A DNA stretch of 26,129 nt from Nitrosopumilaceae archaeon (GCA_036556885.1 DATBIP010000008.1:1-26129); one strand, 5' to 3'; numbered from the stretch's first letter, positions 321 through 20,681 are shown. Notes: generated from the sequence alone by a model not told the origin. Numbers and translations are program-made.

Positions 321-337
321 GTGTGTTCATAACAAAC
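321..337. promoter_or_regulatory. Palindromic motif site 1 (GTGTGTT-CAT-AACAAAC)
   Basis: 13/14 match to GTTTGTT-N3-AACAAAC, 39 nt upstream of the zinc-ribbon ATG at 281. Confidence 0.55.
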
Positions 338-343
338 ATTTTC

Positions 344-622
344 TCAATCTTTTTGATTTTCATACCGCATTTTCATGCAAAGTACGGTAGTAGTTAGTGC
401 AATAGCAGCCACATTGACTCCTATAATGTAAGGATCATCTTTTTCAATCCCATACAAAATCCACAAAAAAGCTCCAACTGCAACTAAAATCACAAGGTAT
501 TTTGATACATCCTTGAGCATTTTTGTTCTATATCCTTTGATAATTTGAGGAACCCATCCAGCCAAAATTATTATCCCTGCTACTGTAGCTAAAATTCCTA
601 AAGATGATTCATCAAAAAACAT
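344..622 (-). CDS. SemiSWEET / PQ-loop (MtN3-like) small transporter
   Basis: 92 aa with three hydrophobic helices, a WVPQ (PQ) motif followed by RTKMLKDVS, and LWILYG in the second helix. Confidence 0.8.
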   Translation of the reverse strand: MFFDESSLGILATVAGIIILAGWVPQIIKGYRTKMLKDVSKYLVILVAVGAFLWILYGIEKDDPYIIGVNVAAIALTTTVLCMKMRYENQKD

Positions 623-631
623 TTTTCATCG

Positions 632-3190
632 CTAGTTCCAGAAAAATTGATCTAATCCAGTTTGTTTTGGTTTGCCTAGTATTGTATTAAAATCAAGATC
701 CATTGAAGATGTGATTTGGTCTAGGGTGCTTTCCATAAATTCCATGTACTTTTTGGAATCTACCTCTTCAGGTCGTGCCATTTCAACTGGCTTGACACCA
801 GGCTTGTTTACAATTTTGACATAAGATATGATGTCACCTTTTTTTATCTCTCGAATTGATTCAAGCAATTTTGCTGCACGTATGTGCTGCGGAACTGTTT
901 TGACATATTCAGATGGAGCCTTACTAATCATTACGTTAAATGCAAGCTCCGATAACGGAATTTCTTTTTCTTCTACTTTTTTAGCATATTCTGTAATTTT
1001 ACTGCTGATTTGTTTTTTTGCACTTTCAAAATCCTCAACTGACTGGACCTTTGAAAGAATTCCAAGAAGTTCGTAAAACAATGTCCTGATAAAAGGAGGC
1101 GTGTGCGATTTTTTCCCTGTTAAACCTTTTACATCTACTTTTCCATCCTTTGTTACTCCAAGATAATTTTTCTTACGACTGCTTAATACTACATATCGAT
1201 ATTCCTTATCTACTTCTAACTCAACACTATGGACTTTTTTTGCCCAATCAATTACTTTTTGGATTTGTTCTTGTGTAGGATTTTTAATAAATAAAGAGTC
1301 AGTGTCGCCATACAGTACCTCTATCTCATACTCTTGACATTTTTTTATTGTCTCTAAAATTGTATACCTACCAATTGCGGTGGTGGCCTCAGCTGCAGGA
1401 AGAAAATACAGTGGAAATATCTCGGCTCCCATTACTCCATAACTTGCATTGAGTATTACTTTGAGTGCTTGGCTAACTACAGTATATTGTTGTCTCTGTT
1501 CATCTGATAATGCTTCATTTTTTGAAAGATGTTTGTAATAATTTACTCTAAGATCTCTAAGTGAGCCAATCAAAAGAGATGTCATGCCATTATGCTTTGT
1601 GCAAACCCAATGGTTTGTTTGTGGAACTTTATTTTTCTTGCATTCCTCATGTGGACATCTAACTGTTTCATATGATAGATTTTTTACTTTAATTATACTT
1701 GGATACAGACTGGCAAAATCCATTACAGTAACATTAAAGTGAATTCCTTCTGTAGGGTCAACAACTAGACCCCCTCTGAATTTTTTATCCTTGATAATTG
1801 CATCACTAGTAACTCCGACTGATTTTTTTTCAAGTTCGGTGCTTTTTGGAATTAACGCATTACGCTGACGGTGCTCATAGTAAAGTAGACTACGAATCCA
1901 TTGCGATACTCCCATACGTGCAATATCGTCAATTGGCATTCTTGCAATTCTAGAAATGACAATTAGCAGATTTAGTAGTAAATCATTGTTAAAGCTTGTA
2001 AGTTTGTATGTCAGACTGGCGTCATTAAAGCAGTAATTTGCTGTCTGGTAAAGATTCAGATCAGCAAGCTCAATCCCATAGTCTATTTTAGATTCATTTA
2101 AGAGTGCCTTTGATACGCTGTTTAGTGAAAAATCAGTATACTTGTGACTAAATGCATAGATCTGAAATGATCTGTTTGACAAGGTTCGATACAGATCAAT
2201 GTGTACTCCTTCCTTTAGTGTTGCCGAATCCTTCATCATGTATAATGGATTATCCTCTTGTTTGATTCCTAATCTCTGTGCACGATTATACAAATATGGC
2301 ATATCAAAATCATCTCCATTGAAGGTTATCACAAAAGGATACTCTGATATTTTTTTAAACGCATCAAGTATCATTTCTTTTTCCTTGTCTGCATCATAGA
2401 TTCGAATAGTAACATCAGAAGGAAGTTCGTTTTTACCTTCCTCCAAGCCTTCCTGTCTTAAAACAAATACTTGTTTGAAATTATCGCTTCCTTCAAATCC
2501 AACTGCAGTTACTTTTCTATCTGCAATCTTTGCATCTGGTATTCTGCCAACTTCTGCTTCTACTTCAATGTCCAAACTAACACGTTTAATTTTTGGGATT
2601 GGTTGATTCAGAAGATCAGCCCAGGCGGAAACATATTCTTGATATTCTTTAGCGTCTACCATTCCGTCGTCTGTTGCTTTGTCCCATAAGAGACTCTTGA
2701 GTGCCAGACGAACTTCATCAGAAATTTCTAAATTGTGTGGCTTTATCTGCCCATCTTCAATTTGGTAATATTTGCCAACGATTAGTGAATTATCATATAG
2801 ATAGTTCTCGTAATATTTTATATCAGATTCCCATGTATCAATTAGATTACGAATGCTTTTGTCAGTTCCACCTATTGCAAGAGGATTTGAAACAATTATT
2901 TTAGATACTTTAATTTCAGTATCATTTAGCATGTCATGTTTTTCCACAGTGTCAATTTTTATCACATCATCTCTATCTGAAAGAAAATCTAATTCGTCAG
3001 GGTTAAGCTTTGAATAACAATAAGGCTTGTGACCTGATTGATCATCCCAAAGAACTATTTTTTGTGATTTAGGCTCATAAAATTTTAAGACTGCGGCATT
3101 TTTCTGATTGTTATACGTTGCAGATACTAATAATGAGATAGGGATTGACTTGCCTTGCAACACACTTGATTCATTATTTGTGGCAGTCAT
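632..3190 (-). CDS. polB: Family B DNA polymerase (PolB1-type) with intact 3'-5' exonuclease; no intein
   Basis: Exonuclease motifs DIE, FNGDDFD and YCFND; polymerase motifs DFASLYPS, KVILNASYG and YGDTDS. Confidence 0.98.
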   Translation of the reverse strand: MTATNNESSVLQGKSIPISLLVSATYNNQKNAAVLKFYEPKSQKIVLWDDQSGHKPYCYSKLNPDELDFLSDRDDVIKIDTVEKHDMLNDTEIKVSKIIVSNPLAIGGTDKSIRNLIDTWESDIKYYENYLYDNSLIVGKYYQIEDGQIKPHNLEISDEVRLALKSLLWDKATDDGMVDAKEYQEYVSAWADLLNQPIPKIKRVSLDIEVEAEVGRIPDAKIADRKVTAVGFEGSDNFKQVFVLRQEGLEEGKNELPSDVTIRIYDADKEKEMILDAFKKISEYPFVITFNGDDFDMPYLYNRAQRLGIKQEDNPLYMMKDSATLKEGVHIDLYRTLSNRSFQIYAFSHKYTDFSLNSVSKALLNESKIDYGIELADLNLYQTANYCFNDASLTYKLTSFNNDLLLNLLIVISRIARMPIDDIARMGVSQWIRSLLYYEHRQRNALIPKSTELEKKSVGVTSDAIIKDKKFRGGLVVDPTEGIHFNVTVMDFASLYPSIIKVKNLSYETVRCPHEECKKNKVPQTNHWVCTKHNGMTSLLIGSLRDLRVNYYKHLSKNEALSDEQRQQYTVVSQALKVILNASYGVMGAEIFPLYFLPAAEATTAIGRYTILETIKKCQEYEIEVLYGDTDSLFIKNPTQEQIQKVIDWAKKVHSVELEVDKEYRYVVLSSRKKNYLGVTKDGKVDVKGLTGKKSHTPPFIRTLFYELLGILSKVQSVEDFESAKKQISSKITEYAKKVEEKEIPLSELAFNVMISKAPSEYVKTVPQHIRAAKLLESIREIKKGDIISYVKIVNKPGVKPVEMARPEEVDSKKYMEFMESTLDQITSSMDLDFNTILGKPKQTGLDQFFWN

Positions 3191-3193
3191 GAA

Positions 3194-3730
3194 TTATCTT
3201 GGAATTATTTTTGCATTATAATCTTCGATTAGCTTTTTTGCCCAATACTCGATTTTTGCTTTTTGAAGAGTTATGACCTGCACTCCTGCTTCTTTTATTA
3301 ACTCATAATCGGTCTCAGGATATGTATCTAGGCATACAATTTTTTTGATGCCTATAGTAATTGCCATTTTTGTGCATTCTAAACAAGGTACAAAGGTTGT
3401 ATACAAAATGGCTCCATCGGTTCCAGTCTCTATTCCTAAAATCGCACAATGCATTATCGCGTTGGCTTCAGCATGATTGCAAAGACATCTATCTAAAGAT
3501 GCTCCAGATTCTATTTTTCCTTCCATTCTTAATTGACATCGCTTACATCCTCCATCAAAGCAGTTTTTCACGCCGGGAGGAGTTCCATTATAACCAGTAG
3601 CGATTTGCCTGTGATTTCGAACTATTACCGCACCAACATGGCGAGTCATACAGTTTGAGCGCAATTTAGCAAGCTCTGCTTGCAACATAAAATATTCATC
3701 CCAACTCGGTCTCTCAAAAGTATTAGGCAC
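3194..3730 (-). CDS. dCMP deaminase (cytidine/deoxycytidylate deaminase family)
   Basis: HAE...PCLEC zinc motif, RHVGAVIV and ATGYNG; GTG start; 3-nt gap to polB. Confidence 0.92.
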   Translation of the reverse strand: MPNTFERPSWDEYFMLQAELAKLRSNCMTRHVGAVIVRNHRQIATGYNGTPPGVKNCFDGGCKRCQLRMEGKIESGASLDRCLCNHAEANAIMHCAILGIETGTDGAILYTTFVPCLECTKMAITIGIKKIVCLDTYPETDYELIKEAGVQVITLQKAKIEYWAKKLIEDYNAKIIPR

Positions 3731-3831
3731 ATCAAAAAATGCTCATAGCCACAATATATGGATATTTGAGTAATAGCTACTATTTGCTAACTAGAAAACA
3801 TAAAATCATAATATTAGCCACTAATTATTAG

Positions 3832-5337
3832 ATGTCAACAAAATTCCTTGAACACAGGTTCTTACAAAAAAATACTATAGAATATCGTGATTATCAGGTA
3901 AATTTGGCCAATCAAGCAAAATCAGAAAACTGTCTTGTAGTCTTACCTACAGGTCTTGGTAAAACTACCGTAGCTCTACAAGTAATTGCTGACTATCTCT
4001 CAAGAGGTGCTGGTGGGGTGCTCTTTCTTGCACCAACACGAGTGCTTGCAAATCAACACTATGAATTTTTAAAAAATAATCTTACTATCGAAGATGTTGC
4101 ATTAATTACAGGAGAAGATCTCATAAACAAAAGAAAAAAACTATGGATGAACAGTGTAATTTGTGCTACTCCTGAAATTACAAAAAATGATTTAGACAGA
4201 CAAATTGTCTCACCCGCACAATTTGATTTGGTAATCTTTGATGAGGCTCATAGAACAATTGGAGACTATGCATACTCTGGAATTGCAGAACGATTTGCAG
4301 GTACCAATGCCAGAATTATGGGAATGACTGCAACTCTCCCAAGTGAAAAAGAAAAGGCTACTGAAATGATCACTACACTTAGAATTTCTACTGTAGCAGA
4401 ACGAACAGAGGATAGTCCAGATGTAAAACCATACATCCAAGAGACAAAAACACAGTGGATTAATGTGGAACTACCGCCAGAGATGAAGCACATTCAAAAT
4501 CTCATCAAAAAGGCACTTGAGGAACGATATCGAGAACTAAAAAGAAACGGTGTAAATGTTACAGATAGCAGATCATTATCACAATTACTAAGGTTACGTG
4601 AATATGTCTTGCGACAAAATAGACGTTCTGCAAAACCTCTTTTTACTGCAATTAGAATTCATTATGCACTAAGCATATTTGAATCCCATGGGATTACCCC
4701 ATTTTTGCGATTTTGTGATAGAACAAGCAAGAAAAAGGGAGTAGGTATACGAGATCTTTTTGAAAATGATCAATTCTTTACGCAGGCAATATTATTTGCA
4801 AAGGCTGCACAAGAGAAAGGGATCGAACACAGTAAGATTCCAAAATTAAAAGAGATTTTAGAATCAGTGGACGGAAAGGCTTTGGTTTTTACAAGTTATC
4901 GAGATTCAGTTGAAGTCATTTATCAAAAATTAACCGACATGGGAATCAAGGCTGGATTTTTAATTGGGAAGGCTGGGGAGACTGGTCTTAAACAAAAAAA
5001 GCAAATCGAAACTGTACAAAACTTTCGTGATGGGATTTACAAGGTTTTAATTGCAACAAGAGTTGGCGAGGAGGGTCTTGACATCTCAGAAGTAAACTAT
5101 GTTATTTTTTATGACAATGTTCCAAGCTCAATTAGGTATGTTCAAAGAAGAGGCCGTACAGGAAGAAAAGATTCTGGTAAACTAATCGTACTTATTGCAA
5201 AAGATACTATTGATGAGACATATTATTGGATTGGAAAAAGAAAAATGACCTCTGCTAAAAACATGGGAGATAAAATGACCAAAGTATTACAACAAAACGT
5301 CGAAAAGCCAAAGGCTGCACTTGATGCCTATTTCTAG
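3832..5337 (+). CDS. Hef/FANCM/Mph1-like SF2 helicase (helicase part only, no ERCC4 nuclease domain)
   Basis: [24 protein letters not shown] and QRRGRTGR motifs; the protein ends shortly after motif VI. Confidence 0.93.
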
Positions 5338-5612
5338 CCCAGTCTTTTGATGATGTGATACCCAAATTCTGACTTTACTGGCTCTGATGTTTCTCCAACT
5401 TGTAGCTTAAATGCTGCTTCCTCAAATGGCTTGACCATCATTCCTCTGCCAAAATATCCAAGACTTCCATCCCTTTTTGCACTGCCAGAATCAATTGACA
5501 GCTCTTTTGCAAGCTTGCCAAACTTTTCACCTTTCTTTAATCTCTCCATGATTGCTAGTGCCTCGCTTTGTTTTTTTACCAAAATGTGAGAGCATTTAAT
5601 TTTGTCTGCCAT
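5334..5612 (-). CDS. Parvulin-type peptidyl-prolyl isomerase (thaumarchaeal PinA-like)
   Basis: [31 protein letters not shown] and FGYHII rotamase motifs. Confidence 0.96.
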
Positions 5613-5642
5613 ATCATTTCCAAATAATTTTCCATTAAAAAA

Positions 5643-6041
5643 TTATTCCAAACCCCAACTAGATTTTGTGATTGGTGTAACTTTGATGAATGGTGCCTCG
5701 TTTTCCTTCCATGGTTGGGAACGCACCCATTCAAATTTTTCATGGAATTTTTTATATATTCTTAAAAACTCTTTTCCGTTTTCAATAATTTCGACAGTTC
5801 CTTGTATGCAGACGGCTTGATGCGATTTATCTTTATAAACATCAATTGAAAGTGCTACGCGAGGATTTTTTTGGAGATTTTTGTACATTCTAGTTTCATA
5901 ATCGGTTGCTATGATAAACAGGCCTTCTTCATATAGGTACGACACAGGCTTTACATGCGGCATATCGTCATGCGATGTGGCTATCCTACACGCCTCCATT
6001 TTATTTAAAAACTCTATCTCCTTTGTGGAAAATGAAATCAT
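5643..6041 (-). CDS. Pyridoxamine 5'-phosphate oxidase-like (flavin/F420-binding split-barrel) protein
   Basis: CRIAT...PHVKPV...NLQKNPRVAL pattern. Confidence 0.85.
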   Translation of the reverse strand: MISFSTKEIEFLNKMEACRIATSHDDMPHVKPVSYLYEEGLFIIATDYETRMYKNLQKNPRVALSIDVYKDKSHQAVCIQGTVEIIENGKEFLRIYKKFHEKFEWVRSQPWKENEAPFIKVTPITKSSWGLE

Positions 6042-6157
6042 ATGGTATTTTTGAGCCTTCGAGTTATTAATAATATGATTTTGCTCTTTGTTTAGTCCTA
6101 GTTTGTCTGTTTTTTTTCGGACATATTCAGAGATATCAAGAAACTCTTCCTAGTTAT

Positions 6158-6231
6158 GATGAGCAAATGAATATCCGAGGGGCAATGCTCTCATCCCAGT
6201 TTCATTGTCCTATCCCCTCGGATTATTTTTT
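6158..6231. ncRNA. Candidate structured RNA (GC-rich hairpin, possible pseudoknot); strand unknown
   Basis: Perfect 10-bp inverted repeat ATCCGAGGGG (6173-6182)/CCCCTCGGAT (6214-6223), inner stem CAATG/CATTG, and loop CTCATC (6190-6195) complementary to flanking GATGAG (6158-6163). A T-tract follows on the + strand. Confidence 0.4.
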
Positions 6232-6238
6232 CAATAAT

Positions 6239-6523
6239 TTAATCAAAAATTCGTTCTCTTATCTGAGGTACGTTTTTGTAAACAATGTCTCTGATTTTTA
6301 GCTGATCCTCTTGTGTAGGCATGGCTTTTTTTATCTGAACTAATCCCGTGATACCAGTTGTCAGGGCAGAGCCAATAATTAATCCATATACGAATTCCTT
6401 GGGATTTTCTACTTGAAGGACATCCTTGTTTTGTTCGATTTCTTGTAAATGTGCTTGGATTGTTGCAAGAGCTCCGTCCAAAGTCTGAGTGATTAGTTGT
6501 TCTATCTGCTCATCATCATTCAT
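6239..6523 (-). CDS. Hypothetical protein (94 aa)
   Basis: ATG start, typical composition, fills the gap; no family recognised. Confidence 0.75.
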   Translation of the reverse strand: MNDDEQIEQLITQTLDGALATIQAHLQEIEQNKDVLQVENPKEFVYGLIIGSALTTGITGLVQIKKAMPTQEDQLKIRDIVYKNVPQIRERIFD

Positions 6524-6621
6524 GAATAAAATAAGAGTAAATTTGGTAATAAATCTGCAGCTTTCATTTATAGTTGGATGAATTGAAATAGATTTTTAAT
6601 AACCCAACTTTTAGCAAATTC

Positions 6622-7023: not shown

Positions 7024-7025
7024 TG

Positions 7026-7808
7026 TTATTTTAGCTTACTCATCAATTCAGTATACTTTCTTTGTAATTCATTGAATTCTTCTTTAACTGATTTGAGCTC
7101 ATTTACTGTTGCTTTATTTTTTTCATTTAATAGCTCAACTAAGGTGTTGACAGTACGAAATATCTTTTTGGATTCACTTACGTCCCCAACAACTTGTAAT
7201 TCTTTTTTAATTATATCAATAGCTTCCTGTTCAGTTTTTATTTTATTTTGTAATGCTTCTTTCTTTTCAAGACGTTGCAATTCAAGCTTGATGTCATCAA
7301 TTTGATCTACCTTGAAGCTTAGCTCTGATTGAGCTTGTTCAATTTGATTTTTAAAGTAAGTTATTTTGTTTTTAATTTCTTCACGTTCTGTCTGCAGTTT
7401 GGTTATTTCGTGTTTTAATTTAGCAACTTTTACTTCCTTATAATCAAATTTATTCAAATCAAACTTTAGTTCAGGCTTTTTAGGATTTAGAATCGATATT
7501 TCCTTATCGAATCTCTCATTGTTCTTTTTAAAATTATCAAAGCGAGTCTTTTTTTCTTCAACAAGTTTTTTTGCTAAATCAAAATATTGAGCTGTATTAG
7601 TAAATTCATCTTTAAGTTTTGGAGAATCTCTTTCAAACTCTTCATAGTTGGATTTTTTTATTTTTTCTATTCTTACGGATCTGTCTGGAACCTCTTCAAC
7701 AATTTGATCTGGGATTCTTTGACCTAAAGTTGGAATTTCTACCCATTCATCTTCTTGAGGGTTGCCAGTTTCAGCTTTTTTAATTCGCTTTAGGTGTTTT
7801 TCCAGCAT
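7026..7808 (-). CDS. Long coiled-coil protein of unknown function
   Basis: K/E/L heptad-rich C-terminal two thirds. I prefer ATG 7808 (MLEKHLKR) to the ORF-track start at 7865, whose extension looks promoter-like. Confidence 0.75.
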   Translation of the reverse strand: MLEKHLKRIKKAETGNPQEDEWVEIPTLGQRIPDQIVEEVPDRSVRIEKIKKSNYEEFERDSPKLKDEFTNTAQYFDLAKKLVEEKKTRFDNFKKNNERFDKEISILNPKKPELKFDLNKFDYKEVKVAKLKHEITKLQTEREEIKNKITYFKNQIEQAQSELSFKVDQIDDIKLELQRLEKKEALQNKIKTEQEAIDIIKKELQVVGDVSESKKIFRTVNTLVELLNEKNKATVNELKSVKEEFNELQRKYTELMSKLK

Positions 7809-7846
7809 GTAATTTTGAACAAAACATGAGATATGACTGGTATGTA

Positions 7847-7863
7847 GTTTCAAGCGAACAAAC
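7847..7863. promoter_or_regulatory. Palindromic motif site 2 (GTTTCAA-GCG-AACAAAC)
   Basis: 11/14 match, in the divergent region 38 nt upstream of the coiled-coil ATG (7808) and 51 nt upstream of the prenyltransferase. Confidence 0.5.
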
Positions 7864-7914: not shown

Positions 7915-8799
7915 ATGCTAAGGATATGGCTTCGAGTAATTCGAATTAGGTTTTTGCTTTCCTCTGTAATTGCCGTCTCTGCAGGTCTAGCAATTAGTTG
8001 GTGGCATATTCAACAGATTGATCTTCTTTATGCAATTATGACAATGAGCGGAGTTGTTGCACTGCATGCAAGTGTGGATCTACTTAATGATTATTGGGAT
8101 TTTAAACGTGGTATAGATATCCAAACCAAACGAACCAAGATGAGCGGTGGTACAGGCGTTCTTCCAGAAGGATTACTGCGACCTAATCAAGTATATCGTG
8201 CAGGCGTTTTCTTTTTAATAATCGGTGCTGCGATTGGTAGCTATTTTGTAATTATTGATGGGATAATAATTGGAGCAATCCTGGTATTTGCTGTCATATC
8301 AATTTACTTTTATTCTACAAAAATTGTTGACTCTGGACTAGCAGAAGTATTTGTTACAATTAAAGGTACAATGATTGTTCTTGGATCATACTATATTCAA
8401 ACCATGGAACTTAATCTTGCAATACTATTTGCAGGAGTTTTCATTGGTGTTCTGTCATCTCTTGTTCTGTTTATTACCTCATTTCCAGATTTTGATGCAG
8501 ATAAAGCAAAAGGTAGAAAAACACTAGTAATTGTTACAGGAAAACAAAAGGCTACTTTAGTTTTTTGGATTTTTCCAATAATTGCTTATTTAATACTAAT
8601 TTCTGGAGTTGTGTTAGAAATTTTCCCAGCGTATTCACTAATCTCTTTGGTAATGTTGCCATTAATAATTAAAGTAGGACTACGACTTCAAAAAAATTTT
8701 AATGATATTGAAGAAATTGTATCCCTGATGAGTAAAACGATTATCTTTAGCAGAATCACAGGTATTCTATTTGTCCTAAGTTTTCTTGTACCCTTGTAA
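7915..8799 (+). CDS. menA: UbiA-family prenyltransferase, MenA-like
   Basis: LNDYWDFKRGID and DFDADKAKGRKTL Asp-rich motifs; multiple TM helices. Confidence 0.8.
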   Translation: MLRIWLRVIRIRFLLSSVIAVSAGLAISWWHIQQIDLLYAIMTMSGVVALHASVDLLNDYWDFKRGIDIQTKRTKMSGGTGVLPEGLLRPNQVYRAGVFFLIIGAAIGSYFVIIDGIIIGAILVFAVISIYFYSTKIVDSGLAEVFVTIKGTMIVLGSYYIQTMELNLAILFAGVFIGVLSSLVLFITSFPDFDADKAKGRKTLVIVTGKQKATLVFWIFPIIAYLILISGVVLEIFPAYSLISLVMLPLIIKVGLRLQKNFNDIEEIVSLMSKTIIFSRITGILFVLSFLVPL

Positions 8800-8802
8800 A
8801 CT

Positions 8803-8819
8803 GTTCATAAAATACATAC
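8803..8819. promoter_or_regulatory. Weak palindromic motif site 3 (GTTCATA-AAA-TACATAC)
   Basis: Only 9/14 match, but 34 nt upstream of the receiver ATG at 8854 and just before a TATTATA box. Confidence 0.25.
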
Positions 8820-8853: not shown

Positions 8854-9252
8854 ATGATCAAAGTCATTGTAGTTGATGATGAAAATGATGTTGCTGAAGT
8901 TTTGTGTGAGTTTTTAAAAATTAAAGAAATCAAAGTCATTGGAAGAGGTAAAAATGGGAACGATGCTTTTGAATTATATAAAAAACATCATCCAGACATT
9001 GTTTTAATGGATTTAGTTATGCCAAATTATGATGGATTTTATGGAATAGAAAAAATTCGCAAGTATGATCCAAAATCAAAAATAATGATCATTTCAGCTT
9101 CTTTAACTCATTTATATGTAAAAAAACTGATAAAATTAAACGTAAATGCAATTTTACTCAAACCCTATGACCTCAATAATATTATAGAAAAAATCAACCA
9201 AGTTCATCAGGGAATAGAAATACAAAGAGTGCCTGTTGCTTTCCAAAAATAA
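8854..9252 (+). CDS. Stand-alone response regulator receiver (CheY-like) #1
   Basis: VVDDE acidic pocket, MDLVMP phospho-Asp, ISAS and LKP; no output domain. Confidence 0.93.
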   Translation: MIKVIVVDDENDVAEVLCEFLKIKEIKVIGRGKNGNDAFELYKKHHPDIVLMDLVMPNYDGFYGIEKIRKYDPKSKIMIISASLTHLYVKKLIKLNVNAILLKPYDLNNIIEKINQVHQGIEIQRVPVAFQK

Positions 9253-10400: not shown

Positions 10401-11090
10401 TTAAGAGCCACCAATGATTCCACCAAAGTTTAACACATCATCTGAAATGTTTGGTACGTCTTGTTCAATTCTTAAAACATATCCTTCTGGCACATTTGCT
10501 TGTATGAAGAGTTGTTCTCCGCTAGAAGGTCTATCCCTATCGGCATAAACTATAGCGAATACTGCTAATTCATCATTATCCACAAAATTATCAAAATTTT
10601 GATTTACTATCCAATAAACAAATGCTGTAGTGGTGTCAGGTTTTTGTTCATCGACAAATGGATTGACATTGATTATGCCACGGTTTTTTGCGTCAGCTAC
10701 TGCATCACGTAATGAATTATAGGACATATCAGGTATACTTCCACCATAAATATTCTCATAGTTTATTGTGTAATTTTCAAGTTGTACTAACTCATATGAC
10801 ACAGTCATTCTTTTTGGGTCAACATGTACTGGACCATCTGACACGGTTTTAACAGGTGTTGCAGTTGCAATCAAGTCATTTAAAGAAACATCAGCAGCTG
10901 CAGAAATTTTTCCTGCCACTATTAAGTGATCATCTACCTGTTCTACAGCTTTTTCTACAACTTTTTTTTGTGTAATGTTAACTTGAAATCCAATATTTGA
11001 ATAAATAACTACTAAAACCAGTGCAATACTAAAAAAGAGCACCATGCCAACAGTGTATGCAGATACTAATCCTCTATGATGATTCTTCAT
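10401..11090 (-). CDS. Archaellin/type IV pilin-like protein with class III signal peptide
   Basis: MKNHHRG|LVSAYTVGMVLFFSIALVLVV (basic leader, G cleavage site, hydrophobic H-domain). The C-terminus (DNFVDNDELAVFAI...GEQLFIQANVPEGYVLRIEQDVP) resembles the archaellin beta-rich terminus. Confidence 0.7.
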   Translation of the reverse strand: MKNHHRGLVSAYTVGMVLFFSIALVLVVIYSNIGFQVNITQKKVVEKAVEQVDDHLIVAGKISAAADVSLNDLIATATPVKTVSDGPVHVDPKRMTVSYELVQLENYTINYENIYGGSIPDMSYNSLRDAVADAKNRGIINVNPFVDEQKPDTTTAFVYWIVNQNFDNFVDNDELAVFAIVYADRDRPSSGEQLFIQANVPEGYVLRIEQDVPNISDDVLNFGGIIGGS

Positions 11091-11143
11091 TTTTAACTTC
11101 CTAATGACTTGAATTTATTTTGATTCAGTATCTTTTCTCGTAT

Positions 11144-11160
11144 GTTTACTGCGAACAAAC
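11144..11160. promoter_or_regulatory. Palindromic motif site 4 (GTTTACT-GCG-AACAAAC)
   Basis: 12/14 match, 53 nt upstream of the archaellin-like ATG (11090) in the region divergent with the YHS gene. Confidence 0.55.
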
Positions 11161-14250: not shown

Positions 14251-14558
14251 TAGATGTGATGACCACTAAATCCGCCAACCCTTTTTACTTTACCATCATT
14301 TAACAATTTTTTCAAAAATGCATTTGATGCAGAAACTTTAACTCCTAACTGTCGTGCAAGATCTTGAACTGTAAGTACCTTTGCACTTTTGATAATTTTC
14401 ATAGCTTGTTCTTCATTAACAATTACTGAAATCTCAGCCTTTGAAGACCCTCCTTCTTCTTTCTTTTTACCTTTCCTTTTTTCTCCTGATTTTTTTGTAG
14501 ACTCGTCAGTTTGTGATTTTTCTTGTTGTGCTGGTGATTTCTTTTTTGCTCCACCCAT
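14232..14558 (-). CDS. rps25e: 30S ribosomal protein S25e
   Basis: Lys-rich N-terminus MGGAKKK and winged helix LTVQDLARQLGVKVSASNAFLKKL...IYQP. Confidence 0.9.
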   Translation of the reverse strand: MGGAKKKSPAQQEKSQTDESTKKSGEKRKGKKKEEGGSSKAEISVIVNEEQAMKIIKSAKVLTVQDLARQLGVKVSASNAFLKKLLNDGKVKRVGGFSGHHIYQPLSA

Positions 14559-14603
14559 AGAAAAATTTGAGATTAAATCCTCCTTATAAAGGTGAATATA
14601 ATG

Positions 14604-14705
14604 TTAGTTGTTTTCTTTTAATCGATTTACAAAAATTTCCGTATATTCTTGCCCATAGATTTTTTTCATATATGGCACAAGCTCCTTCCAATTCAGTTTT
14701 GACAT
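14604..14705 (-). CDS. Possible small protein (33 aa, MSKLNWKELVPYMKKIYGQEYTEIFVNRLKENN)
   Basis: ATG-initiated 3' half of ORF 14604..14807; amphipathic, protein-like sequence in an otherwise empty gap. Confidence 0.35.
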   Translation of the reverse strand: MSKLNWKELVPYMKKIYGQEYTEIFVNRLKENN

Positions 14706-14869
14706 GAATCTAATTGATCTTTTTGTTGGCTGATAATTCAATAGTATTTTCACTCTCAAAAAATCTTTAAACATCGAAGTTGATTTTTTCACACATATTA
14801 GTAACATTAATTGAAATTTTTCAACATTAGAATTTCAATTATATATGACATCATTTTCTAATTTGTATA

Positions 14870-15079
14870 ATGGGAGTCATTTCAAAAGGAGCTAAATGTA
14901 ACATAAGTGGTTGTGACAAAGATGGTGTACGTTCTCTAAATACGACCAAAGTAGAAAATGCAGGTTTTCAAGTCTCTGGAGGAAAAAAAACTGTTCTGTG
15001 TAAAGAACACTATAAAGAATGGAAGAAAGCAACAAAAGATGATCGAGACCTTGAACGTGCTAGATTTGATAAATTTTAA
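14870..15079 (+). CDS. Small basic Cys/His metal-binding protein (C-x4-C...C-x2-H), function unknown
   Basis: CNISGC...LCKEHY; TATA-like TTATATAT about 25 nt upstream; stop overlaps the convergent gene. Confidence 0.85.
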   Translation: MGVISKGAKCNISGCDKDGVRSLNTTKVENAGFQVSGGKKTVLCKEHYKEWKKATKDDRDLERARFDKF

Positions 15080-16176
15080 TTTCTTTTTCTAGGCTTTTTG
15101 TGTTCAAACTTTGAAGGCGATTCTTTCAAAAACTCATCTCTGAGGCTGTTATAGTATGGACCAAGTTTTTTGTAAAGCCTTTTTGGTTTTCTTGGTTTTT
15201 GATTGCTAAGTGCATATAACGCAAGAATAGGAAAAGCAATGGTCGAATCCGCATAAACAGTTATCATGTCATGATGAGAATCCTGTACCTTTCCCCAGCT
15301 TTTTCCTTCCTGCAATGTAGCTCCTGATAATCCTCCTGTATCTGGTCTCGCATCAGTAATTTGTATAATGTAATCCTGTCCCCCATCATTTCTCCTCAAT
15401 ATTTGATCTAAAAGCGGACCTGTCTGCTGCGCAGAATTTTTAGGCACGCCACCTCCTAATTCCACAATACCTGATTTTTTTGAATTGTAAACAATCGCTG
15501 CCTGTTCTATTATCTCTCTAACGAAATCTAAGCTGTACACCTTATCTCTTAATCTATGCACTGCCAAATTCATGGCAAGTGATGAATCAAGTAATGCTGG
15601 AACATAAACTGGTACATCATAGTCATATGCAGTAGTTAGAAAGCTTCGTTTAGGATATTTTGCTTTATTTTTACTAATTTTTCCCATTATGTTACAAAAT
15701 TCTGCACTTGTAAAAGGTTTGTCTATTAGATTTTCCTTAAACATTTTTTGAACTACTTTATCTTCTGCTTCTAAGGTTTCAGAAAATTTAATAAAAACAT
15801 CTCGAATTCTCACAATTTCTTTTTCATAAAGTTTCATGTCATCAACTTCATAATGACCTTGCTTTACCGGAAAACCCCATGCAAAGTGATCTTCATGATA
15901 CACATTTGCGCCAGTTGTAACAATCCAGTCTACAAATCCTTTTTCAATTAACGTTTGAATTATCCCACCAAATCCTACTGGAGTCATTGCCCCTGCAACT
16001 GTAAGGCAAATTACTGCATCTTCACTAATCATTTTTGAATAAAGTTGTGCAGCTTCTCCTAATTGCCTACCATTATATCCGCTTCTGGCATAAACCTCAA
16101 CCAGATCCTGGATTTTCATCTTAGGATCTAGTTTTACGTGAGGGATGTCCTTGCCGTGAAAATGATGATGATCCAC
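15076..16176 (-). CDS. Deoxyhypusine synthase-family protein (possibly SpeY-like homospermidine synthase)
   Basis: AGAMTP, TTGANVYH, GGGVPKN and DARPDTGGLSGATLQEGKSWGK (catalytic Lys retained). Start placed at GTG 16176 (MDHHHFHGKD) because the ORF-track extension to 16314 overlaps the divergent gene. Confidence 0.88.
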   Translation of the reverse strand: MDHHHFHGKDIPHVKLDPKMKIQDLVEVYARSGYNGRQLGEAAQLYSKMISEDAVICLTVAGAMTPVGFGGIIQTLIEKGFVDWIVTTGANVYHEDHFAWGFPVKQGHYEVDDMKLYEKEIVRIRDVFIKFSETLEAEDKVVQKMFKENLIDKPFTSAEFCNIMGKISKNKAKYPKRSFLTTAYDYDVPVYVPALLDSSLAMNLAVHRLRDKVYSLDFVREIIEQAAIVYNSKKSGIVELGGGVPKNSAQQTGPLLDQILRRNDGGQDYIIQITDARPDTGGLSGATLQEGKSWGKVQDSHHDMITVYADSTIAFPILALYALSNQKPRKPKRLYKKLGPYYNSLRDEFLKESPSKFEHKKPRKRN

Positions 16177-16260
16177 GAATGAAAAAATTTCATGCACTAA
16201 ATAACACTTACGAATACAAATTATATTCTTATGAGAGATATACATACAATATTTACAGTA

Positions 16261-16602
16261 ATGAAAATTATTGATGTCCCTAATCCTGACAGAGTAAATA
16301 GAATCCCTGACCAATCTGTAACCCTTTTTTCTGGACAGGATTATTCAGATCATGGTTTTAGGATACAAAAAATAGAACTCAGACTTTTTGTAGAAAAGAC
16401 CGATGAGAATCTTGGGCCTTATTCTTTGATTACTTCATTTGTTGATACAGATAAGGGATCAATAGAAATGATTTATGATGAAGGATATAGAGGAATTAAT
16501 CCACTCGAATCTGTCAAAGAACTGCTTGTAAAAAACTTGGGCATATCAGGGTTAATTTTACGTTCAATCATCACTCTAGAATCCGAATTAAAAGCAAGCT
16601 AA
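16261..16602 (+). CDS. Hypothetical protein
   Basis: Protein-like ORF divergent from the DHS-like gene; ATG 16261 (MKIIDVPNP) preferred. Confidence 0.72.
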   Translation: MKIIDVPNPDRVNRIPDQSVTLFSGQDYSDHGFRIQKIELRLFVEKTDENLGPYSLITSFVDTDKGSIEMIYDEGYRGINPLESVKELLVKNLGISGLILRSIITLESELKAS

Positions 16603-16610
16603 TCCCTGTC

Positions 16611-16627
16611 GGTATTTGATTACAAAC
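16611..16627. promoter_or_regulatory. Weak palindromic motif site 5 (GGTATTT-GAT-TACAAAC)
   Basis: 10/14 match, 35 nt upstream of the receiver ATG at 16663 and just before TTTTATTA. Confidence 0.3.
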
Positions 16628-16662
16628 AAGTGGTTTTATTAGAAATTTCCCTATGACATTTA

Positions 16663-17064
16663 ATGGATAATTCTAAAATTCCTAAAGAAACAATTCAAGC
16701 TATTGTAGTAGATGATGATGAGGATTCGTCAGAATCAATTTGTCAAACACTTGAAATTGCGGGAATTGATGTTATTGGGAAAGGGTATGATGGAGAGCAA
16801 GCATATCAACTATACAAAACACTATCGCCAGACATTGTAATATTAGACATGAATATGCCAAACTACGATGGTGGATATGCACTTGAAAAAATTACTCAAG
16901 ATTTTCCAGAAGCAAAAATAATTGTAGTAACTGCTTTTACAGATTATAAGTTTGACAAAAGTAAAGCATCTGCCATCTTTACAAAACCGTATGATTTTGA
17001 ACCATTTATAGATACAATAAAAAAAGTCGCATTAAACCAACGTACTCCAAAAATAATCTCATAG
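16663..17064 (+). CDS. Stand-alone response regulator receiver (CheY-like) #2
   Basis: VVDDDED, LDMNMP, VTAF and TKP motifs. Confidence 0.93.
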   Translation: MDNSKIPKETIQAIVVDDDEDSSESICQTLEIAGIDVIGKGYDGEQAYQLYKTLSPDIVILDMNMPNYDGGYALEKITQDFPEAKIIVVTAFTDYKFDKSKASAIFTKPYDFEPFIDTIKKVALNQRTPKIIS

Positions 17065-17167
17065 ATAATTTAGATCTGCTTTATATGTACAATATACTAT
17101 TTTCAAGGCAATTTTTAATTTACAAATATTAGATACCTTTATTTCAATAACTCAAGAGTGAAAAATT

Positions 17168-19018
17168 GTGCGAATACTTCAATTACATTGTGATAGTATT
17201 GAATATACACCGACAAAAAAAGAGATAAAATCAGCTGAAGAAATTACCCCACAAACAAAACACCTTGACGAAGTCGTTGTGACATTTATTGCTGTTGAAG
17301 AAGGTGATGATAATACTGTTGCAAAAAAAGCAATTGATGAAATTAAAAATTCTATGGCAAAGGTTGGCTGCAAAAAATTATTGTTATACCCATATGCTCA
17401 TCTTAGCTCAAATCTTGCATCACCAAATTCAGCTTTATCCATTATAAAAGAAATGGAATCGTTGGCAACAGATCTTGATGTGTCAAGAGCTCCATTTGGT
17501 TGGACAAAATCCTACAAGTTACAAGTAAAAGGTCATCCACTAGCTGAAAACTCAAAGGTTATTACAAAAGGTGAAGGAGGAGACAATACTTCAGAGGCTG
17601 TCAAATCTGAATCTAAGATAAAATCATACTGGTATATTTTGTCTCCAGATGGAACCATGCAAGAAATTGATAAATTTAATTTTTCAAAACATCCTCAACT
17701 AGAAATCTTATCAAAATATGAAGCTGCAAAGAAGAGATCTGTTGACGAGCCTCCTCCACATGTAAGATTGATGAAAAAAATGGCAATTGCAGACTATGAG
17801 CCGGCATCTGATTCTGGCAACATGCGATTTTATCCAAATGGAAGGCTGATTAAATCTCTAATAGAGCGATATGTGTCTGAAAAAGTTCTAGACTATGGTG
17901 GATACGAGGTTGAAACTCCCATCATGTATGATTCTCATCACCCTAGTCTTGAGAGTTACTTTAATCGTTTTCCTGCGAGGCAATATAACATAAATTCTGA
18001 AGGAAAACAATTGATACTGAGATTTGCTGCCTGTTTTGGGCAATTTTTGATGGCGACTGATTTTCAATTATCTTACAAAAGTTTACCATTACGACTCTAT
18101 GAAATGACAAGATACAGCTTCCGTCGTGAACAGTCAGGGGAGCTAGTTGGTCTAAGAAGACTGCGTGCGTTTACAATGCCAGACTGCCATGCATTTTGTA
18201 AGGACATGAACCAAGCTATTGAAGAGTTTAAAAAAAGATTTGATTTGTCTCGTGAAGTACTTCGTGGTTTAGGTTTGTCTGATTCCGATTACGAGATGGC
18301 AATAAGGTTTACAGAGGAATTTTATAATCAAAACAAGCAACTTGTTCACGAAACAGTAAAAAAACTTGGAAAACCTGTTTTGGTTGAGCTTTGGAAAGAA
18401 AGATTCTTTTATTTTGTCTTAAAATGGGAATTCAATTTTATAGATAATTTAGGTAAGGCCTCTGCACTGTCAACTGATCAAATTGATGTAGAGAACGGAA
18501 AAAGATACAACATTGAGTTTTTTGATGAGCAAAACAAACCGCATAATCCAATAATATTACATAATTCTCCTAGTGGGGCAGTTGAAAGAGTGATTTATGC
18601 ACTGTTAGAAAAAGCAGCAAAGGATGCTAAAGAAGGAAGAAAGCCCAGCTTTCCACTCTGGATGTCACCTACTCAAGTTAGATTAATTCCTATCAGACCA
18701 GAGTTTTTGGAATTTTGTGAAAATATGGCCAATAAACTAACTGCTGCTAAAATTCGTGTAGATATCGATGATAGAAACGAAAGTATTGGAAAAAGAATCC
18801 GCGAAGCGGAAACAGAATGGATTCAATATATTTTGGTAATAGGTGAAAAAGAGGTCAATGCCAAAGACCTTAGCATAAGAAACAGAGAGACTGGCGAACT
18901 CAAACAACTTGTTTTTGAAGAATTTGTAAAGGAAATTAGCGAACAAATTCATGATAAACCTTTTTCAGGCCTCAACTCTAATCGACACTTATCTTCACGA
19001 CCACAGATAATGGTATAA
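17168..19018 (+). CDS. thrS: Threonyl-tRNA synthetase, archaeal type with N-terminal editing domain
   Basis: MRILQLHCD...YPYAHLSSNLA archaeal editing domain; FRREQSGELVGLRRLRAFTMPDCH, HNSPSGAVER and an anticodon-binding domain. Confidence 0.97.
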   Translation: MRILQLHCDSIEYTPTKKEIKSAEEITPQTKHLDEVVVTFIAVEEGDDNTVAKKAIDEIKNSMAKVGCKKLLLYPYAHLSSNLASPNSALSIIKEMESLATDLDVSRAPFGWTKSYKLQVKGHPLAENSKVITKGEGGDNTSEAVKSESKIKSYWYILSPDGTMQEIDKFNFSKHPQLEILSKYEAAKKRSVDEPPPHVRLMKKMAIADYEPASDSGNMRFYPNGRLIKSLIERYVSEKVLDYGGYEVETPIMYDSHHPSLESYFNRFPARQYNINSEGKQLILRFAACFGQFLMATDFQLSYKSLPLRLYEMTRYSFRREQSGELVGLRRLRAFTMPDCHAFCKDMNQAIEEFKKRFDLSREVLRGLGLSDSDYEMAIRFTEEFYNQNKQLVHETVKKLGKPVLVELWKERFFYFVLKWEFNFIDNLGKASALSTDQIDVENGKRYNIEFFDEQNKPHNPIILHNSPSGAVERVIYALLEKAAKDAKEGRKPSFPLWMSPTQVRLIPIRPEFLEFCENMANKLTAAKIRVDIDDRNESIGKRIREAETEWIQYILVIGEKEVNAKDLSIRNRETGELKQLVFEEFVKEISEQIHDKPFSGLNSNRHLSSRPQIMV

Positions 19019-19043
19019 TTTTTTTCAAACAATTTGATGATGT

Positions 19044-19060
19044 GTATTTTTCGAACAAAC
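19044..19060. promoter_or_regulatory. Palindromic motif site 6 (GTATTTT-TCG-AACAAAC)
   Basis: 12/14 match, 42 nt upstream of the receiver ATG at 19103. Confidence 0.5.
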
Positions 19061-19102
19061 TAAAGCAGAAATCTGTAGATATTAAATAAAAATAGACACC
19101 AT

Positions 19103-19573
19103 ATGGGAATGAAGATACTCGTAGCTGAAGACAGTCCGTCTCTAGCATTACTATACAAAAAAACTTTGGAAAAACGAGGTCATATGGTAATCATTACTGA
19201 AAATGGCTTCAAGTGTCTCTATCAGTACTTAGATGATTATAAAATTCGTGGAGGAGATAAGAAAAAAACCTCTCTTTACGACCTTGTCATCTTAGATCAC
19301 AAAATGCCAAGAATGTCTGGCACAGAAGTTGCTAAAGAAATCATGGAAGTTAACCCAAAACAAAGAATTCTTTTTGTTACAGGGTATGTTAAGGATATGA
19401 TGAAAGGTGTTAGAAAAATTGGAGAAAAAATTGAGCTTATGCAAAAACCATTCCCGATTGATGCAATGATTCGCCAAGTAGAAGGTATCAACGAAAGATG
19501 GAGAAAAAAAATGACAGAAAAGATAGCAATGGAAATGTGGGATGGGGAAGGACTATCAGAACCAATCCAATAA
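19103..19573 (+). CDS. Stand-alone response regulator receiver #3 with short C-terminal tail
   Basis: VAEDS, LDHKMP, VTGY and QKP motifs; tail RWRKKMTEKIAMEMWDGEGLSEPIQ. Confidence 0.92.
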   Translation: MGMKILVAEDSPSLALLYKKTLEKRGHMVIITENGFKCLYQYLDDYKIRGGDKKKTSLYDLVILDHKMPRMSGTEVAKEIMEVNPKQRILFVTGYVKDMMKGVRKIGEKIELMQKPFPIDAMIRQVEGINERWRKKMTEKIAMEMWDGEGLSEPIQ

Positions 19574-19627
19574 TACATTCCCTTTGAATTTATTATAGGG
19601 AAATTTTCAGTACCATATGATAGAAAC

Positions 19628-20497
19628 ATGAGCTATCTTGATCTGTATATGAATAGAAATCCCTTGATTACTAGTCCAAGTGAAGAAGGAGAACCTTCAA
19701 CAATTCTTTATGGAATACCTTTTGATTCTACCCATTCGTATCGTCCAGGAACAAGATTTGGGCCTGATGCCATACGTGAATCTTTTAACAATATTGAAAT
19801 TTTTATGCCTCAATTTTCAGTTGATTTAGAAACAGTCAACATTGAAGATTTGGGTAATACAAAACATACCGTAGTAGCAAAAGAAATGCTAGATATGGTT
19901 TCAAAAATCACCTCAGAATTAATCAAAAAAGAAAAACAAATTATCATTCTTGGTGGTGAGCATCTAATTACTCTTGGAACATATCCATGCTTTCCAAAAG
20001 AAACTGGGTATATTGTATTTGATGCACACTATGATCTTCGTGACGAGTATGCAGACATCAAACTTAGTCATGCATCATATTTACGAAGATTGATAGAAAA
20101 ACAAGGCTCTGATAGAATTATTCATGTTGGTGCAAGGTCATATGTTAAAGAAGAATTAGCGTTTAAAGAAGAACATAAAGTAAAGACAATCTCTGATTGG
20201 GATATTAGACACGGTAATGGTTCAAAGTTAGTCAAAGATGCAGTTTCAGTTTTTGACAAGTTGTATGTGAGCATAGATTTGGATGTCTTAGACCCAGCTT
20301 TTGCGCCTGGAGTTGGCAACCCAGAGGCAGTAGGAATAACTTCTAGAGAATTATACGATATGATTAGTTCACTAAAAGATCAAAAAATTACCGGTGCAGA
20401 TATTGTTGAATTATGCCCCACATACGATAATGGTGCAACTGCATCAATGGCTGCAAGATTAATGTCAGCAATAATAGCTATGAATATTAAGAAATAA
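19628..20497 (+). CDS. speB: Agmatinase (ureohydrolase family)
   Basis: GIPFD...RPGTRFGP, GGEH, DAHYD and SIDLDVLDP...APGVG metal-binding motifs. Confidence 0.92.
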   Translation: MSYLDLYMNRNPLITSPSEEGEPSTILYGIPFDSTHSYRPGTRFGPDAIRESFNNIEIFMPQFSVDLETVNIEDLGNTKHTVVAKEMLDMVSKITSELIKKEKQIIILGGEHLITLGTYPCFPKETGYIVFDAHYDLRDEYADIKLSHASYLRRLIEKQGSDRIIHVGARSYVKEELAFKEEHKVKTISDWDIRHGNGSKLVKDAVSVFDKLYVSIDLDVLDPAFAPGVGNPEAVGITSRELYDMISSLKDQKITGADIVELCPTYDNGATASMAARLMSAIIAMNIKK

Positions 20498-20630
20498 TTT
20501 TTTGATTATTCTCGAATTTATCCATTTTTTTTAGAAATGATTCAAAAATTTCAGCGTCTGATACTTTATCAGTTTTCTCTTTATTTGCTTCAAGAGTAAT
20601 TTGATGAATCATATGTGTAGTTATGACCAT
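20487..20630 (-). CDS. Possible small protein (47 aa)
   Basis: Not in the ORF track. Translation: MVITTHMIHQITLEANKEKTDKVSDAEIFESFLKKMDKFENNQKIIS*. Its stop overlaps the agmatinase 3' end, and CTATATCT plus a motif copy lie upstream. Confidence 0.4.
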   Translation of the reverse strand: MVITTHMIHQITLEANKEKTDKVSDAEIFESFLKKMDKFENNQKIIS

Positions 20631-20664
20631 AGTAATTTTTTCATGCATGTAGATATAGGGAATT

Positions 20665-20681
20665 GTGTGTTCAAAAAAAAT
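20665..20681. promoter_or_regulatory. Palindromic motif site 7 (GTGTGTT-CAA-AAAAAAT)
   Basis: 11/14 match; shares GTGTGTTCA with site 1; 34 nt upstream of ATG 20630. Confidence 0.35.

Follow-up and report, generated by a model that had tools for sequence, protein, structure and literature searches.

A 21-bp inverted-repeat operator linked to archaellin, chemotaxis, and scattered two-component genes in Nitrosopumilaceae, with a TrmB-family protein as its candidate binder

Genes and promoters of the window

The stretch of DNA analyzed here, referred to as the window, comprises 26,129 nucleotides of a Nitrosopumilaceae archaeon (GCA_036556885.1 DATBIP010000008.1:1-26129) and carries, in front of several accessory genes, a 21-bp palindrome, GTNTGTTC-N5-GAACANAC, whose copies have the inverted-repeat layout and constant spacing of an operator. 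The window is contig C8 of G000, a metagenome-assembled genome (MAG) of 1.1 Mb in 194 contigs with 34% GC and 75% completeness. Its core genes encode PolB, ThrRS, DHS, RpoK, Alba, S25e, and agmatinase, and among them lie three stand-alone receivers, a divergent archaellin, a coiled-coil protein, a YHS mini-protein, and small open reading frames (ORFs). The original prediction, made from the window sequence alone, had described a 17-bp palindrome, GTTTGTT-N3-AACAAAC, upstream of seven such genes and proposed that a homodimeric factor coregulates them. Relatives are deposited as "Nitrosopumilaceae archaeon" MAGs, with one label being NP_delta. Window DNA was found in wetland, soil, and sediment metagenomes, and the public RNA runs that contain it hold just short contigs from a single metatranscriptome, without transcription start site (TSS) information.

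Gene calling in G000 with a dicodon model yielded 1466 genes (91% coding), and intergenic DNA makes up 9% of the genome. Alignment of 863 upstream regions at the start codon revealed a T/A-rich box at -31..-24 and an A-rich stretch at -37..-32, which points to a TFB recognition element (BRE) and TATA box at the spacing expected of mostly leaderless mRNAs. Some contig ends of G000 overlap or are duplicated and some segments are near-identical (C30:13887-13998 versus C151:1-112, C6 versus C99, C71:455 versus C106:3284, and C92 versus C93), so some counts contain duplicates; the C30/C151 duplicate was taken out of the tests. Three start codons in the window were revised by conservation: that of receiver #3 to 19109 (MKILVAED; window 19103-19109), that of a 47-aa ORF to 20630 (20630-20648) on the strength of a GACCAT conserved in relatives, and that of the coiled-coil gene to 7808 instead of a GTG at 7865.

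A palindrome with a 5-bp spacer

An unbiased count of dyads in intergenic DNA (palindromic 5-mers with spacers of 0 to 12) ranked TGTTC-N5-GAACA third out of 13,312, with 5 occurrences observed and 0.07 expected; the top dyad was the tRNA T-arm. The 21-bp operator was derived by extending the TGTTC/GAACA half-sites, and its half-sites are those of the 17-bp palindrome, set apart by a spacer 4 bp longer. When spacer lengths were scanned with GTNTGTTC and GAACANAC at up to 2 mismatches, N5 formed a sharp peak of 14 intergenic versus 4 coding matches. Other spacers gave 0 to 2 intergenic matches, except for a smaller peak of 7 at N1, three of which are shadows of N5 sites, while the rest fit N5 at 3 mismatches. 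Because each half-site repeats a 4-bp unit (GTNT-GTTC), an N5 site scores in the N1 frame as well. The original prediction had therefore picked out the correct half-sites but read them in a frame short by 4 bp, the spacing being 5 rather than 1 when the half-sites are written as 8-mers.

The 17-bp palindrome as first written has 8 matches at up to 3 mismatches in the window, compared with 4.27±2.2 in shuffled sequence (a count of 8 was reached in 7 of 100 shuffles), and the intergenic DNA of G000 shows no enrichment of its core (TGTT-N3-AACA, 6 versus 4.1 expected; TTGTT-N3-AACAA, 0). The 9-mer CGAACAAAC, previously pointed out in three sites, occurs 9 times in the 1.1-Mb genome, and its 3 intergenic copies all lie in the window; it consists of the right half-site plus one spacer base and was rejected as a separate signal.

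The 30 distinct sites at up to 1 mismatch are two-fold symmetric, but positions 3 and 19 are complementary in just 5 of the 30 and the spacer is non-palindromic. This suggests selection on two protein-contacted half-sites and not on a hairpin, and a hairpin or RNA reading was rejected since covariation is absent. A second, unrelated palindrome, TAATC-N7-GATTA (extended, TATAATCCT-N3-AAGATTATAC), was found 6 times in intergenic DNA versus 0.15 expected. Its sites in G000 (C62:2361/2383/2957, C73:480, C120:1057, and C177:1238/1821/1843) are often paired 22 nt apart, and it is a candidate operator of another regulator.

Operator sites and target genes in the window

All seven sites of the original prediction were recovered at their positions and with their matches to the 17-bp palindrome: 321 (13/14), 7847 (11), 8803 (9), 11144 (12), 16611 (10), 19044 (12), and 20665 (11). 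In the 21-bp frame, five window sites are good (321, 8799, 11140, 19040, and 20665), 7847 is atypical, and 16611 is doubtful. The left halves picked earlier for 8803, 11144, and 19044 were off by 4 bp, with conserved footprints that reach 4 bp further left. Alignments of syntenic regions from 7 to 10 same-genus genomes (72 to 80% DNA identity) showed clear conservation of the five good sites in 7 to 10 congeners, with footprints that hold the fixed positions and vary in the spacer and at the N positions.

The strongest window operator (11140..11160; GTATGTTT-ACTGC-GAACAAAC) differs from the consensus by 1 mismatch and is fully conserved in 9 congeners, while its spacer and N positions drift; conservation at the fixed positions is 0.98, against 0.74 in the remaining intergenic region. 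It lies 49 nt from the archaellin-like gene (10401..11090, minus strand) and 64 nt from the divergently oriented YHS/TRASH mini-gene. The archaellin-like gene is taken as the target of this operator; its product matches Pfam Arch_flagellin weakly (E = 0.0099) and is homologous over its full length to a bona fide archaellin from another genus (29% identity, E = 2e-27). The 48-aa YHS/TRASH mini-protein (11225-11371) is encoded from the same divergent promoter region as the archaellin-like gene, and its gene stands tail to tail, with a 4-bp overlap, with an asparagine-synthetase-like gene (11368-12318) that lacks the glutaminase part and carries a zinc ribbon at its end.

The operator of receiver #3 (19040..19060; ATGTGTAT-TTTTC-GAACAAAC) has 3 mismatches and ends 48 nt before the revised ATG of this gene (19109..19573, plus strand; PF00072, E = 2e-13). 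At the same place, 9 congener genomes carry GTGCGTTC-AATTC-AAACAGAC with 2 mismatches, nearer to the consensus than the window itself. A variant of this site, GTTCGTTY-N5-AAACAWAC, also precedes the paralogous receivers C3:6279, C184:3703, and C145:3328. Receiver #3 is genus specific; a single-protein locus scan found its orthologues (70 to 83% identity) in congeners only, and conservation beyond the genus was therefore assessed with cheY.

Receiver #1 (8854..9252, plus strand; PF00072, E = 4e-24) is preceded by an operator (8799..8819; AACTGTTC-ATAAA-ATACATAC) that has 4 mismatches, overlaps the UbiA stop codon, and ends 34 nt before the ATG. This is the former 8803 site, weak at 9/14 in the shorter frame, and it is well conserved in relatives: congeners have ATATGTTC-ATTAA-AAACATAC with 2 mismatches at this place, and the block TATGTTCAT.AAA.ACA.ACAAT is kept in 7 genomes with variable N positions (conservation 0.96 versus 0.85).

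The two remaining good sites precede minus-strand mini-ORFs, and both keep the strong half-site TTGTNTGTTCA 5 to 6 nt from the TATA box. The first (321..341) combines the strong half GTGTGTTC with a weak second half, has 3 mismatches, and lies 39 nt upstream of a 52-aa zinc-ribbon ORF (123..281, minus strand; weak zinc-ribbon Pfam matches), a probable target whose TATA box (reverse complement of TAATAT, 308-313) is 5 nt away. The strong half is kept in 6 of 8 genomes, 2 congeners have 2 mismatches over the 21 bp, and conservation is 0.90 versus 0.77. A 56-aa zinc-ribbon gene akin to this ORF (C172:2984-3154) has a 2-mismatch site 35 nt upstream. The second site (20665..20685) consists of GTGTGTTC, an A-run, and AAATCTAC, again with 3 mismatches. 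It lies 34 nt upstream of the 47-aa ORF (20487..20630, minus strand), a probable target for which no Pfam family was found and whose start was placed by conservation, and TTGTNTGTTCAAAAAAAATC(T/G)ACA is kept in 8 to 9 of 9 genomes (conservation 0.95 versus 0.78).

The two other elements are conserved in one half-site each and misfit the palindrome of which they had been taken as members. The atypical element (7840..7863) holds a perfect half-site GAACAAAC (7856-7863), with GTATGTAG at a distance of 8 bp, not 5, and lies 34 to 38 nt upstream of the coiled-coil gene (7026..7808, minus strand; Pfam matches of coiled-coil type only), a possible target. Its right half is kept as G[AG]AC[AG][AG]ACAC in 9 of 9 genomes and its left half in 5 of 9, and overall conservation is about that of the flank (0.83 versus 0.81). 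In relatives the distance to the coiled-coil start is kept, whereas the distance to UbiA is changed by a 26-nt insertion. The doubtful element (former 16611, 10/14) is reduced to a half-site-like TTACAAAC (16620..16627), 6 nt upstream of the receiver #2 TATA box (TTTATT). It has no partner half; the conserved part is TTACAAACAAG.GGCTTTATT only, the left side is not conserved, and the best 21-bp match has 5 to 7 mismatches, so its membership in the motif set is doubtful.

With the starts of the coiled-coil gene, receiver #3, and the 47-aa ORF revised to 7808, 19109, and 20630, the site-to-start distances of 34 to 53 nt given for the seven sites are correct. The half-sites noted inside coding sequences at 1613 and 18533 are present, and, as had been remarked for housekeeping genes, no match at up to 3 mismatches precedes polB, thrS, or the ribosomal genes of the window.

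Promoter position and target classes in the genome

At up to 3 mismatches, 14 of the 24 intergenic sites in G000 end 30 to 50 nt before a start codon, compared with 17.7% expected at random intergenic positions (p = 1e-5). Site-to-start distances vary from 34 to 58 nt, and the end of the proximal half-site is 4 to 8 nt from the TATA-like box. A palindromic operator of the dimer type is thus seen just upstream of the BRE/TATA region, where the original prediction had placed it.

Sites of this quality precede 8 of the 18 two-component promoters and 20 of the 844 other promoters (Fisher p = 1.5e-8), in a test that is conservative because two sites outside the truncated upstream segments were missed. 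This agrees with the earlier proposal that scattered receiver, kinase, archaellin-like, coiled-coil, and small zinc-ribbon genes have an operator in common. The genes behind sites include coiled-coil histidine kinases (C14:8007, C11:2435, and C3:8636), a membrane kinase (C145:3794), cheY (C151:171), a receiver subfamily (C3:6279, C184:3703, C145:3328, and receiver #3 of the window), and both archaellin-like genes of G000 (window 10401-11090 and C98:6362). Coiled-coil proteins (C124:14429, C163:3515, and C11:1459 in addition to that of the window), zinc-ribbon proteins of 52 to 56 aa, and a CBS-like protein also stand behind sites. CBS-domain proteins recur as operator targets in three genera (G000:C160:971-1936; L157:11521-12408; L158:4043-4495 and 4905-5372), and the site of the CBS protein in G033 is a perfect match.

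Conservation within and beyond the genus

At up to 1 mismatch, 10 of 11 same-genus genomes contain 4 to 11 sites each, while a reversed-pattern control gives 0 to 1. Orthologous sites recur among these genomes with altered spacers, and in congeners the perfect matches are found between cheR and cheY. The conservation before orthologues extends to other genera for cheY and the archaellins. None of the outcomes named in the original prediction as refuting it (no preference for promoter regions, no positional bias, no conservation before orthologues) was observed. The cheY promoter shows the same arrangement in six genera, the palindrome being followed by N7 and ATATTAC, and in three other genera (G033, G042, and G081) the matches cluster in the arl/che region. 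All four archaellin genes of G033 (PF01917, E = 1e-21) have a site that begins 36 to 37 nt upstream of the ATG, and further site-bearing genes in this genome encode two MCPs, CheY, three receivers, a kinase, and a CBS protein. G081 carries four tandem operator copies with an exact 33-bp period (L159:3914-4033; G081:C20:22914-23033) before a 229-aa ORF of archaellin-like length. The clustering in other genera suggests that motility and chemotaxis formed the ancestral core of the regulon. In the genus of the window, the regulon is spread to many scattered signaling genes, several of them in the window.

A sample of 61 genomes of the family gave a corresponding picture. The 12 genomes that have cheY hold 62 motif matches at up to 1 mismatch (2 to 10 each; control total, 8), and the other 49 hold 10. 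A small protein of 85 to 94 aa (EDGYxWGL...LxKLE) with no Pfam family is kept in the che clusters of G033 (L156:9946-10230) and G042 (L160:8360-8617); it has no DNA-binding signature and was rejected as a candidate binder.

A TrmB-family protein as candidate binder

Scans for helix-turn-helix (HTH) families in five genomes identified one DNA-binding gene inside the arl/che clusters, encoding a TrmB-family protein of about 270 aa (PF01978, E = 2e-14; 53.6 bits versus a cutoff of 25.6) whose nearest PDB structures are TrmBL2 and TrmB. Its C-terminal effector domain matches PF11495 (Regulator_TrmB) weakly (E = 0.018; 14.7 bits versus a cutoff of 22.2). In G000, the TrmB-like gene (C14:6285-7094) is followed by a prepilin/prearchaellin peptidase gene, the sole perfect operator of the genome, and a coiled-coil kinase gene; in G033 and G042, it lies within the arl/che clusters. 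Orthologues from three genera are 60 to 75% identical, and in the recognition-helix region D45-R51 and K55-R57 are invariant, residues 52 and 54 being the only variable ones. Among the 61 genomes, orthologues with at least 51% identity (E <= 1e-96) occur in exactly the 12 that have cheY, within-genus splits included, and the remaining 49 have TrmB paralogues of at most 44% identity or none.

Gene location, co-occurrence, and the precedent of the TrmB family make this protein the leading candidate, short of proof. Operators of TrmB-family proteins are inverted repeats with fixed spacers, such as TACT-N3-AGTA, TATCAC-N5-GTGATA (TrmBL1/Tgr), and TACT-N7-8-GAGTA (PMC4158304). We lean toward the prediction that the 21-bp operator is bound by a homodimer of the TrmB-like protein G000:C14:6285-7094 or of a close paralogue.

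Other candidates were examined and set aside. A response regulator of the TackOD1 type with a winged HTH (wHTH) has no convincing copy in G000, and scans for ArsR/HTH_20 and HTH_24 in the five genomes returned from the arl/che clusters only the TrmB-like gene, as a weak match. Autoregulation of the transcription factor (TF) gene was found to be inconsistent across genera. The TrmB-like gene is preceded by a conserved element, TTGTCTGAA(A/T)(A/T)TAACAAAC (G000:C14:6170-6200, with counterparts at the orthologous positions in G009 and G005), which has 4 mismatches to the operator and is just about 8 nt before an alternative upstream ATG; judged by this placement, the element could be an autoregulatory site over the TSS.

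Proposed mechanism and alternative explanations

What was observed directly is the motif itself: that it is enriched, where it lies in promoters, how it is conserved, which gene classes follow it, and that it co-occurs with the TrmB gene and cheY. As the best overall explanation, we propose that the 21-bp operator is placed directly upstream of the BRE/TATA of leaderless promoters; that it would define, in motile Nitrosopumilaceae genera, a regulon of archaellin, chemotaxis (cheY and MCP), stand-alone receiver, coiled-coil histidine kinase, CBS-domain, coiled-coil, and small zinc-ribbon genes; that a TrmB-like dimer would bind it; and that the bound protein would activate transcription by aiding the recruitment of TFB and TBP. 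We put the probability of this explanation at about three in four.

Several points weigh against it. In other genera at 2 mismatches, the genome-wide count is barely above the reversed control, so that only the arl/che clustering is striking; at 3 mismatches, about half of the intergenic matches are expected by chance, as estimated from other spacers; and the window sites 7847 and 16611 misfit the palindrome. With respect to the binder, the 51% cutoff for orthologues was set after the identity gap had been seen, any gene belonging to the motility set would match cheY across genomes in this way, and the 61-genome sample contains relatives that are not independent of one another. Motile genomes have up to 9 TrmB paralogues, and the binder could therefore be another of these. 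No site at up to 3 mismatches was found upstream of the TF gene in the genus of the window. Finally, G013 has 3 motif matches at up to 1 mismatch, and neither a cheY nor a TrmB orthologue was found in it. These matches (C17:23623, C23:39237, and C75:358; genus g3) include one that is 2.6 kb from a TrmB paralogue of 38% identity, which may have the same specificity.

The sign of regulation bears on the first serious alternative. Since the operator adjoins the BRE on its upstream side, activation seems the likelier outcome by analogy with characterized systems: TrmB proteins activate from sites upstream of the BRE/TATA and repress from sites downstream (PMC4158304), and the upstream position goes with activation in TrmBL1/Tgr, VNG1451C, EarA, and CsmR (PMC4158304, PMC10117864, PMC13286277). 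For TrmBL1, EarA, and CsmR at such sites, assistance in TFB/TBP recruitment has been proposed. The bound protein could instead be a repressor that occludes the BRE and blocks TFB. The 4 to 8 nt between the proximal half-site and the TATA box mean that the operator overlaps or abuts the BRE, and motility genes are often off by default. The strong sites, however, are all upstream of the TATA box, with none over the TSS, and we regard repression as rather unlikely, though it is the chief alternative to activation.

A second alternative leaves the operator unchanged and assigns it to another binder: the close TrmB paralogue of 70 to 74% identity, another TrmB paralogue, a CsmR-like Lrp protein, an ArsR/HTH_20 protein, or a zinc-ribbon protein of the regulon itself. 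Motile genomes encode 4 to 9 TrmB-like paralogues each, in two genera the close one is preceded, at about 200 nt, by conserved sites with 2 mismatches, Nitrosopumilaceae are reported to have CsmR homologues (PMC13286277), and ArsR genes are divergent to some thaumarchaeal receiver genes (PMC5847659). Against these stand the CsmR motif, TATCA-N4-TGATA, which is unlike the present one in half-site and spacer, and the arl/che clusters examined, which held no HTH_20/HTH_24 gene besides the TrmB-like one. We consider another binder rather unlikely.

Two further readings appear very improbable. In one, the proximal half-site would be an extended BRE read by an alternative TFB paralogue, as might be suggested by the window elements at 321, 20665, and 16611, which keep mainly one half-site at a fixed 5 to 6 nt from the TATA box. 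The best sites are nevertheless full two-fold palindromes, the distance to the start codon varies by more than 20 nt (34 to 58 nt), and the distribution of the motif among genomes follows that of the TrmB gene and cheY. In the other, a homodimer would bind the 17-bp palindrome as first written. All three of its genome-wide 1-mismatch matches (C3:8579, C8:321, and C184:4134) are intergenic and about 40 nt from starts, but they fit the 21-bp frame too, at 3 mismatches, owing to the 4-bp repeat within the half-site. Together with the unenriched core, the nonsignificant window count, the footprints at 8803, 11144, and 19044, and the perfect sites across genomes, all of which are N5, this leaves the 17-bp model already largely refuted. 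That the motif involves no regulator, and is a leftover of duplicated paralogous promoters or a hairpin in RNA or DNA, is hardly credible: four paralogous receivers do share extra flank similarity (e.g., ACTYGTCTTAAAAG at C3:6279 and C184:3703), but unrelated gene families are preceded by the motif with only its 14 fixed positions in common, many of the sites occupy divergent promoters, in which transcripts do not end, and pairing is not selected, as seen at positions 3/19 and in the spacer.

Relation to known archaeal regulators

The proposed operator and TrmB-like binder most resemble TrmBL1/Tgr and its Thermococcales glycolytic motif, with which they would share a wHTH dimer of the TrmB family, an inverted repeat with a 5-bp spacer, and a dispersed regulon (PMC4158304). 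They differ in the half-site, in a regulon of motility, chemotaxis, and two-component genes instead of sugar metabolism, in the phylum (Nitrososphaerota), and in an effector domain that is weakly TrmB-like, and binding in the present case is predicted. EarA, the euryarchaeal archaellum activator, is a wHTH protein that acts directly upstream of the weak BRE of archaellin promoters, and its gene is often beside arl/che clusters (PMC10117864); it belongs to another protein family, is described solely in Euryarchaeota, and uses short consensus sequences, in contrast to the 21-bp palindrome. CsmR of Haloferax volcanii acts through a semi-palindromic operator that precedes the BRE/TATA in the promoters of arl and other genes, and it controls motility along with other traits, but it is a 13-kDa Lrp/AsnC-like protein (PMC13286277), and its different operator led us to reject the CsmR regulon as an identity for the element. 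Thaumarchaeal CsmR homologues are reported without co-occurrence with archaellins (PMC13286277). ArnR/ArnR1 of Sulfolobus offers an archaellin-promoter activator in a TACK archaeon, but ArnR is a membrane-bound HTH protein with a different box that is confined to the arl promoter and has no wide signaling regulon (PMC10117864, PMC13286277).

None of the known archaellum regulators, ArnR/ArnR1 in Sulfolobales, EarA in Euryarchaeota, and CsmR in Haloferax, has the GTNTGTTC-N5-GAACANAC motif, and none is known for Nitrososphaerota (PMC10117864, PMC13286277). Galperin et al. (2018) described dozens of scattered thaumarchaeal stand-alone receiver and kinase genes that lack a conserved neighborhood and a known output, with no promoter motif described (PMC5847659). 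In line with the original prediction, our literature searches for thaumarchaeal promoter or regulon motifs came upon no account of this element in the library that was searched. The regulon would be of the archaeal TF-operator kind, with a TrmB-type regulator apparently recruited to motility and signaling.

Biological implications

The common operator ties scattered receiver and kinase genes to the archaellins and cheY, and it yields a regulon list, a candidate binder, and a promoter architecture for ecologically important ammonia oxidizers. The motif can be used now for annotating motility-linked genes in MAGs, including those for small zinc-ribbon, coiled-coil, and CBS proteins. Whether a TrmB-family regulator has been recruited in motile ammonia-oxidizing archaea as the master regulator of the archaellum, chemotaxis, and orphan two-component genes through this operator is, in our judgment, evenly poised. 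If so, Nitrososphaerota would gain their first defined cis-regulatory code and their first motility regulator, along with a functional way into the numerous stand-alone receiver genes scattered over these genomes. If the binder is right, the TrmB family would be extended from sugar metabolism to motility and signaling.

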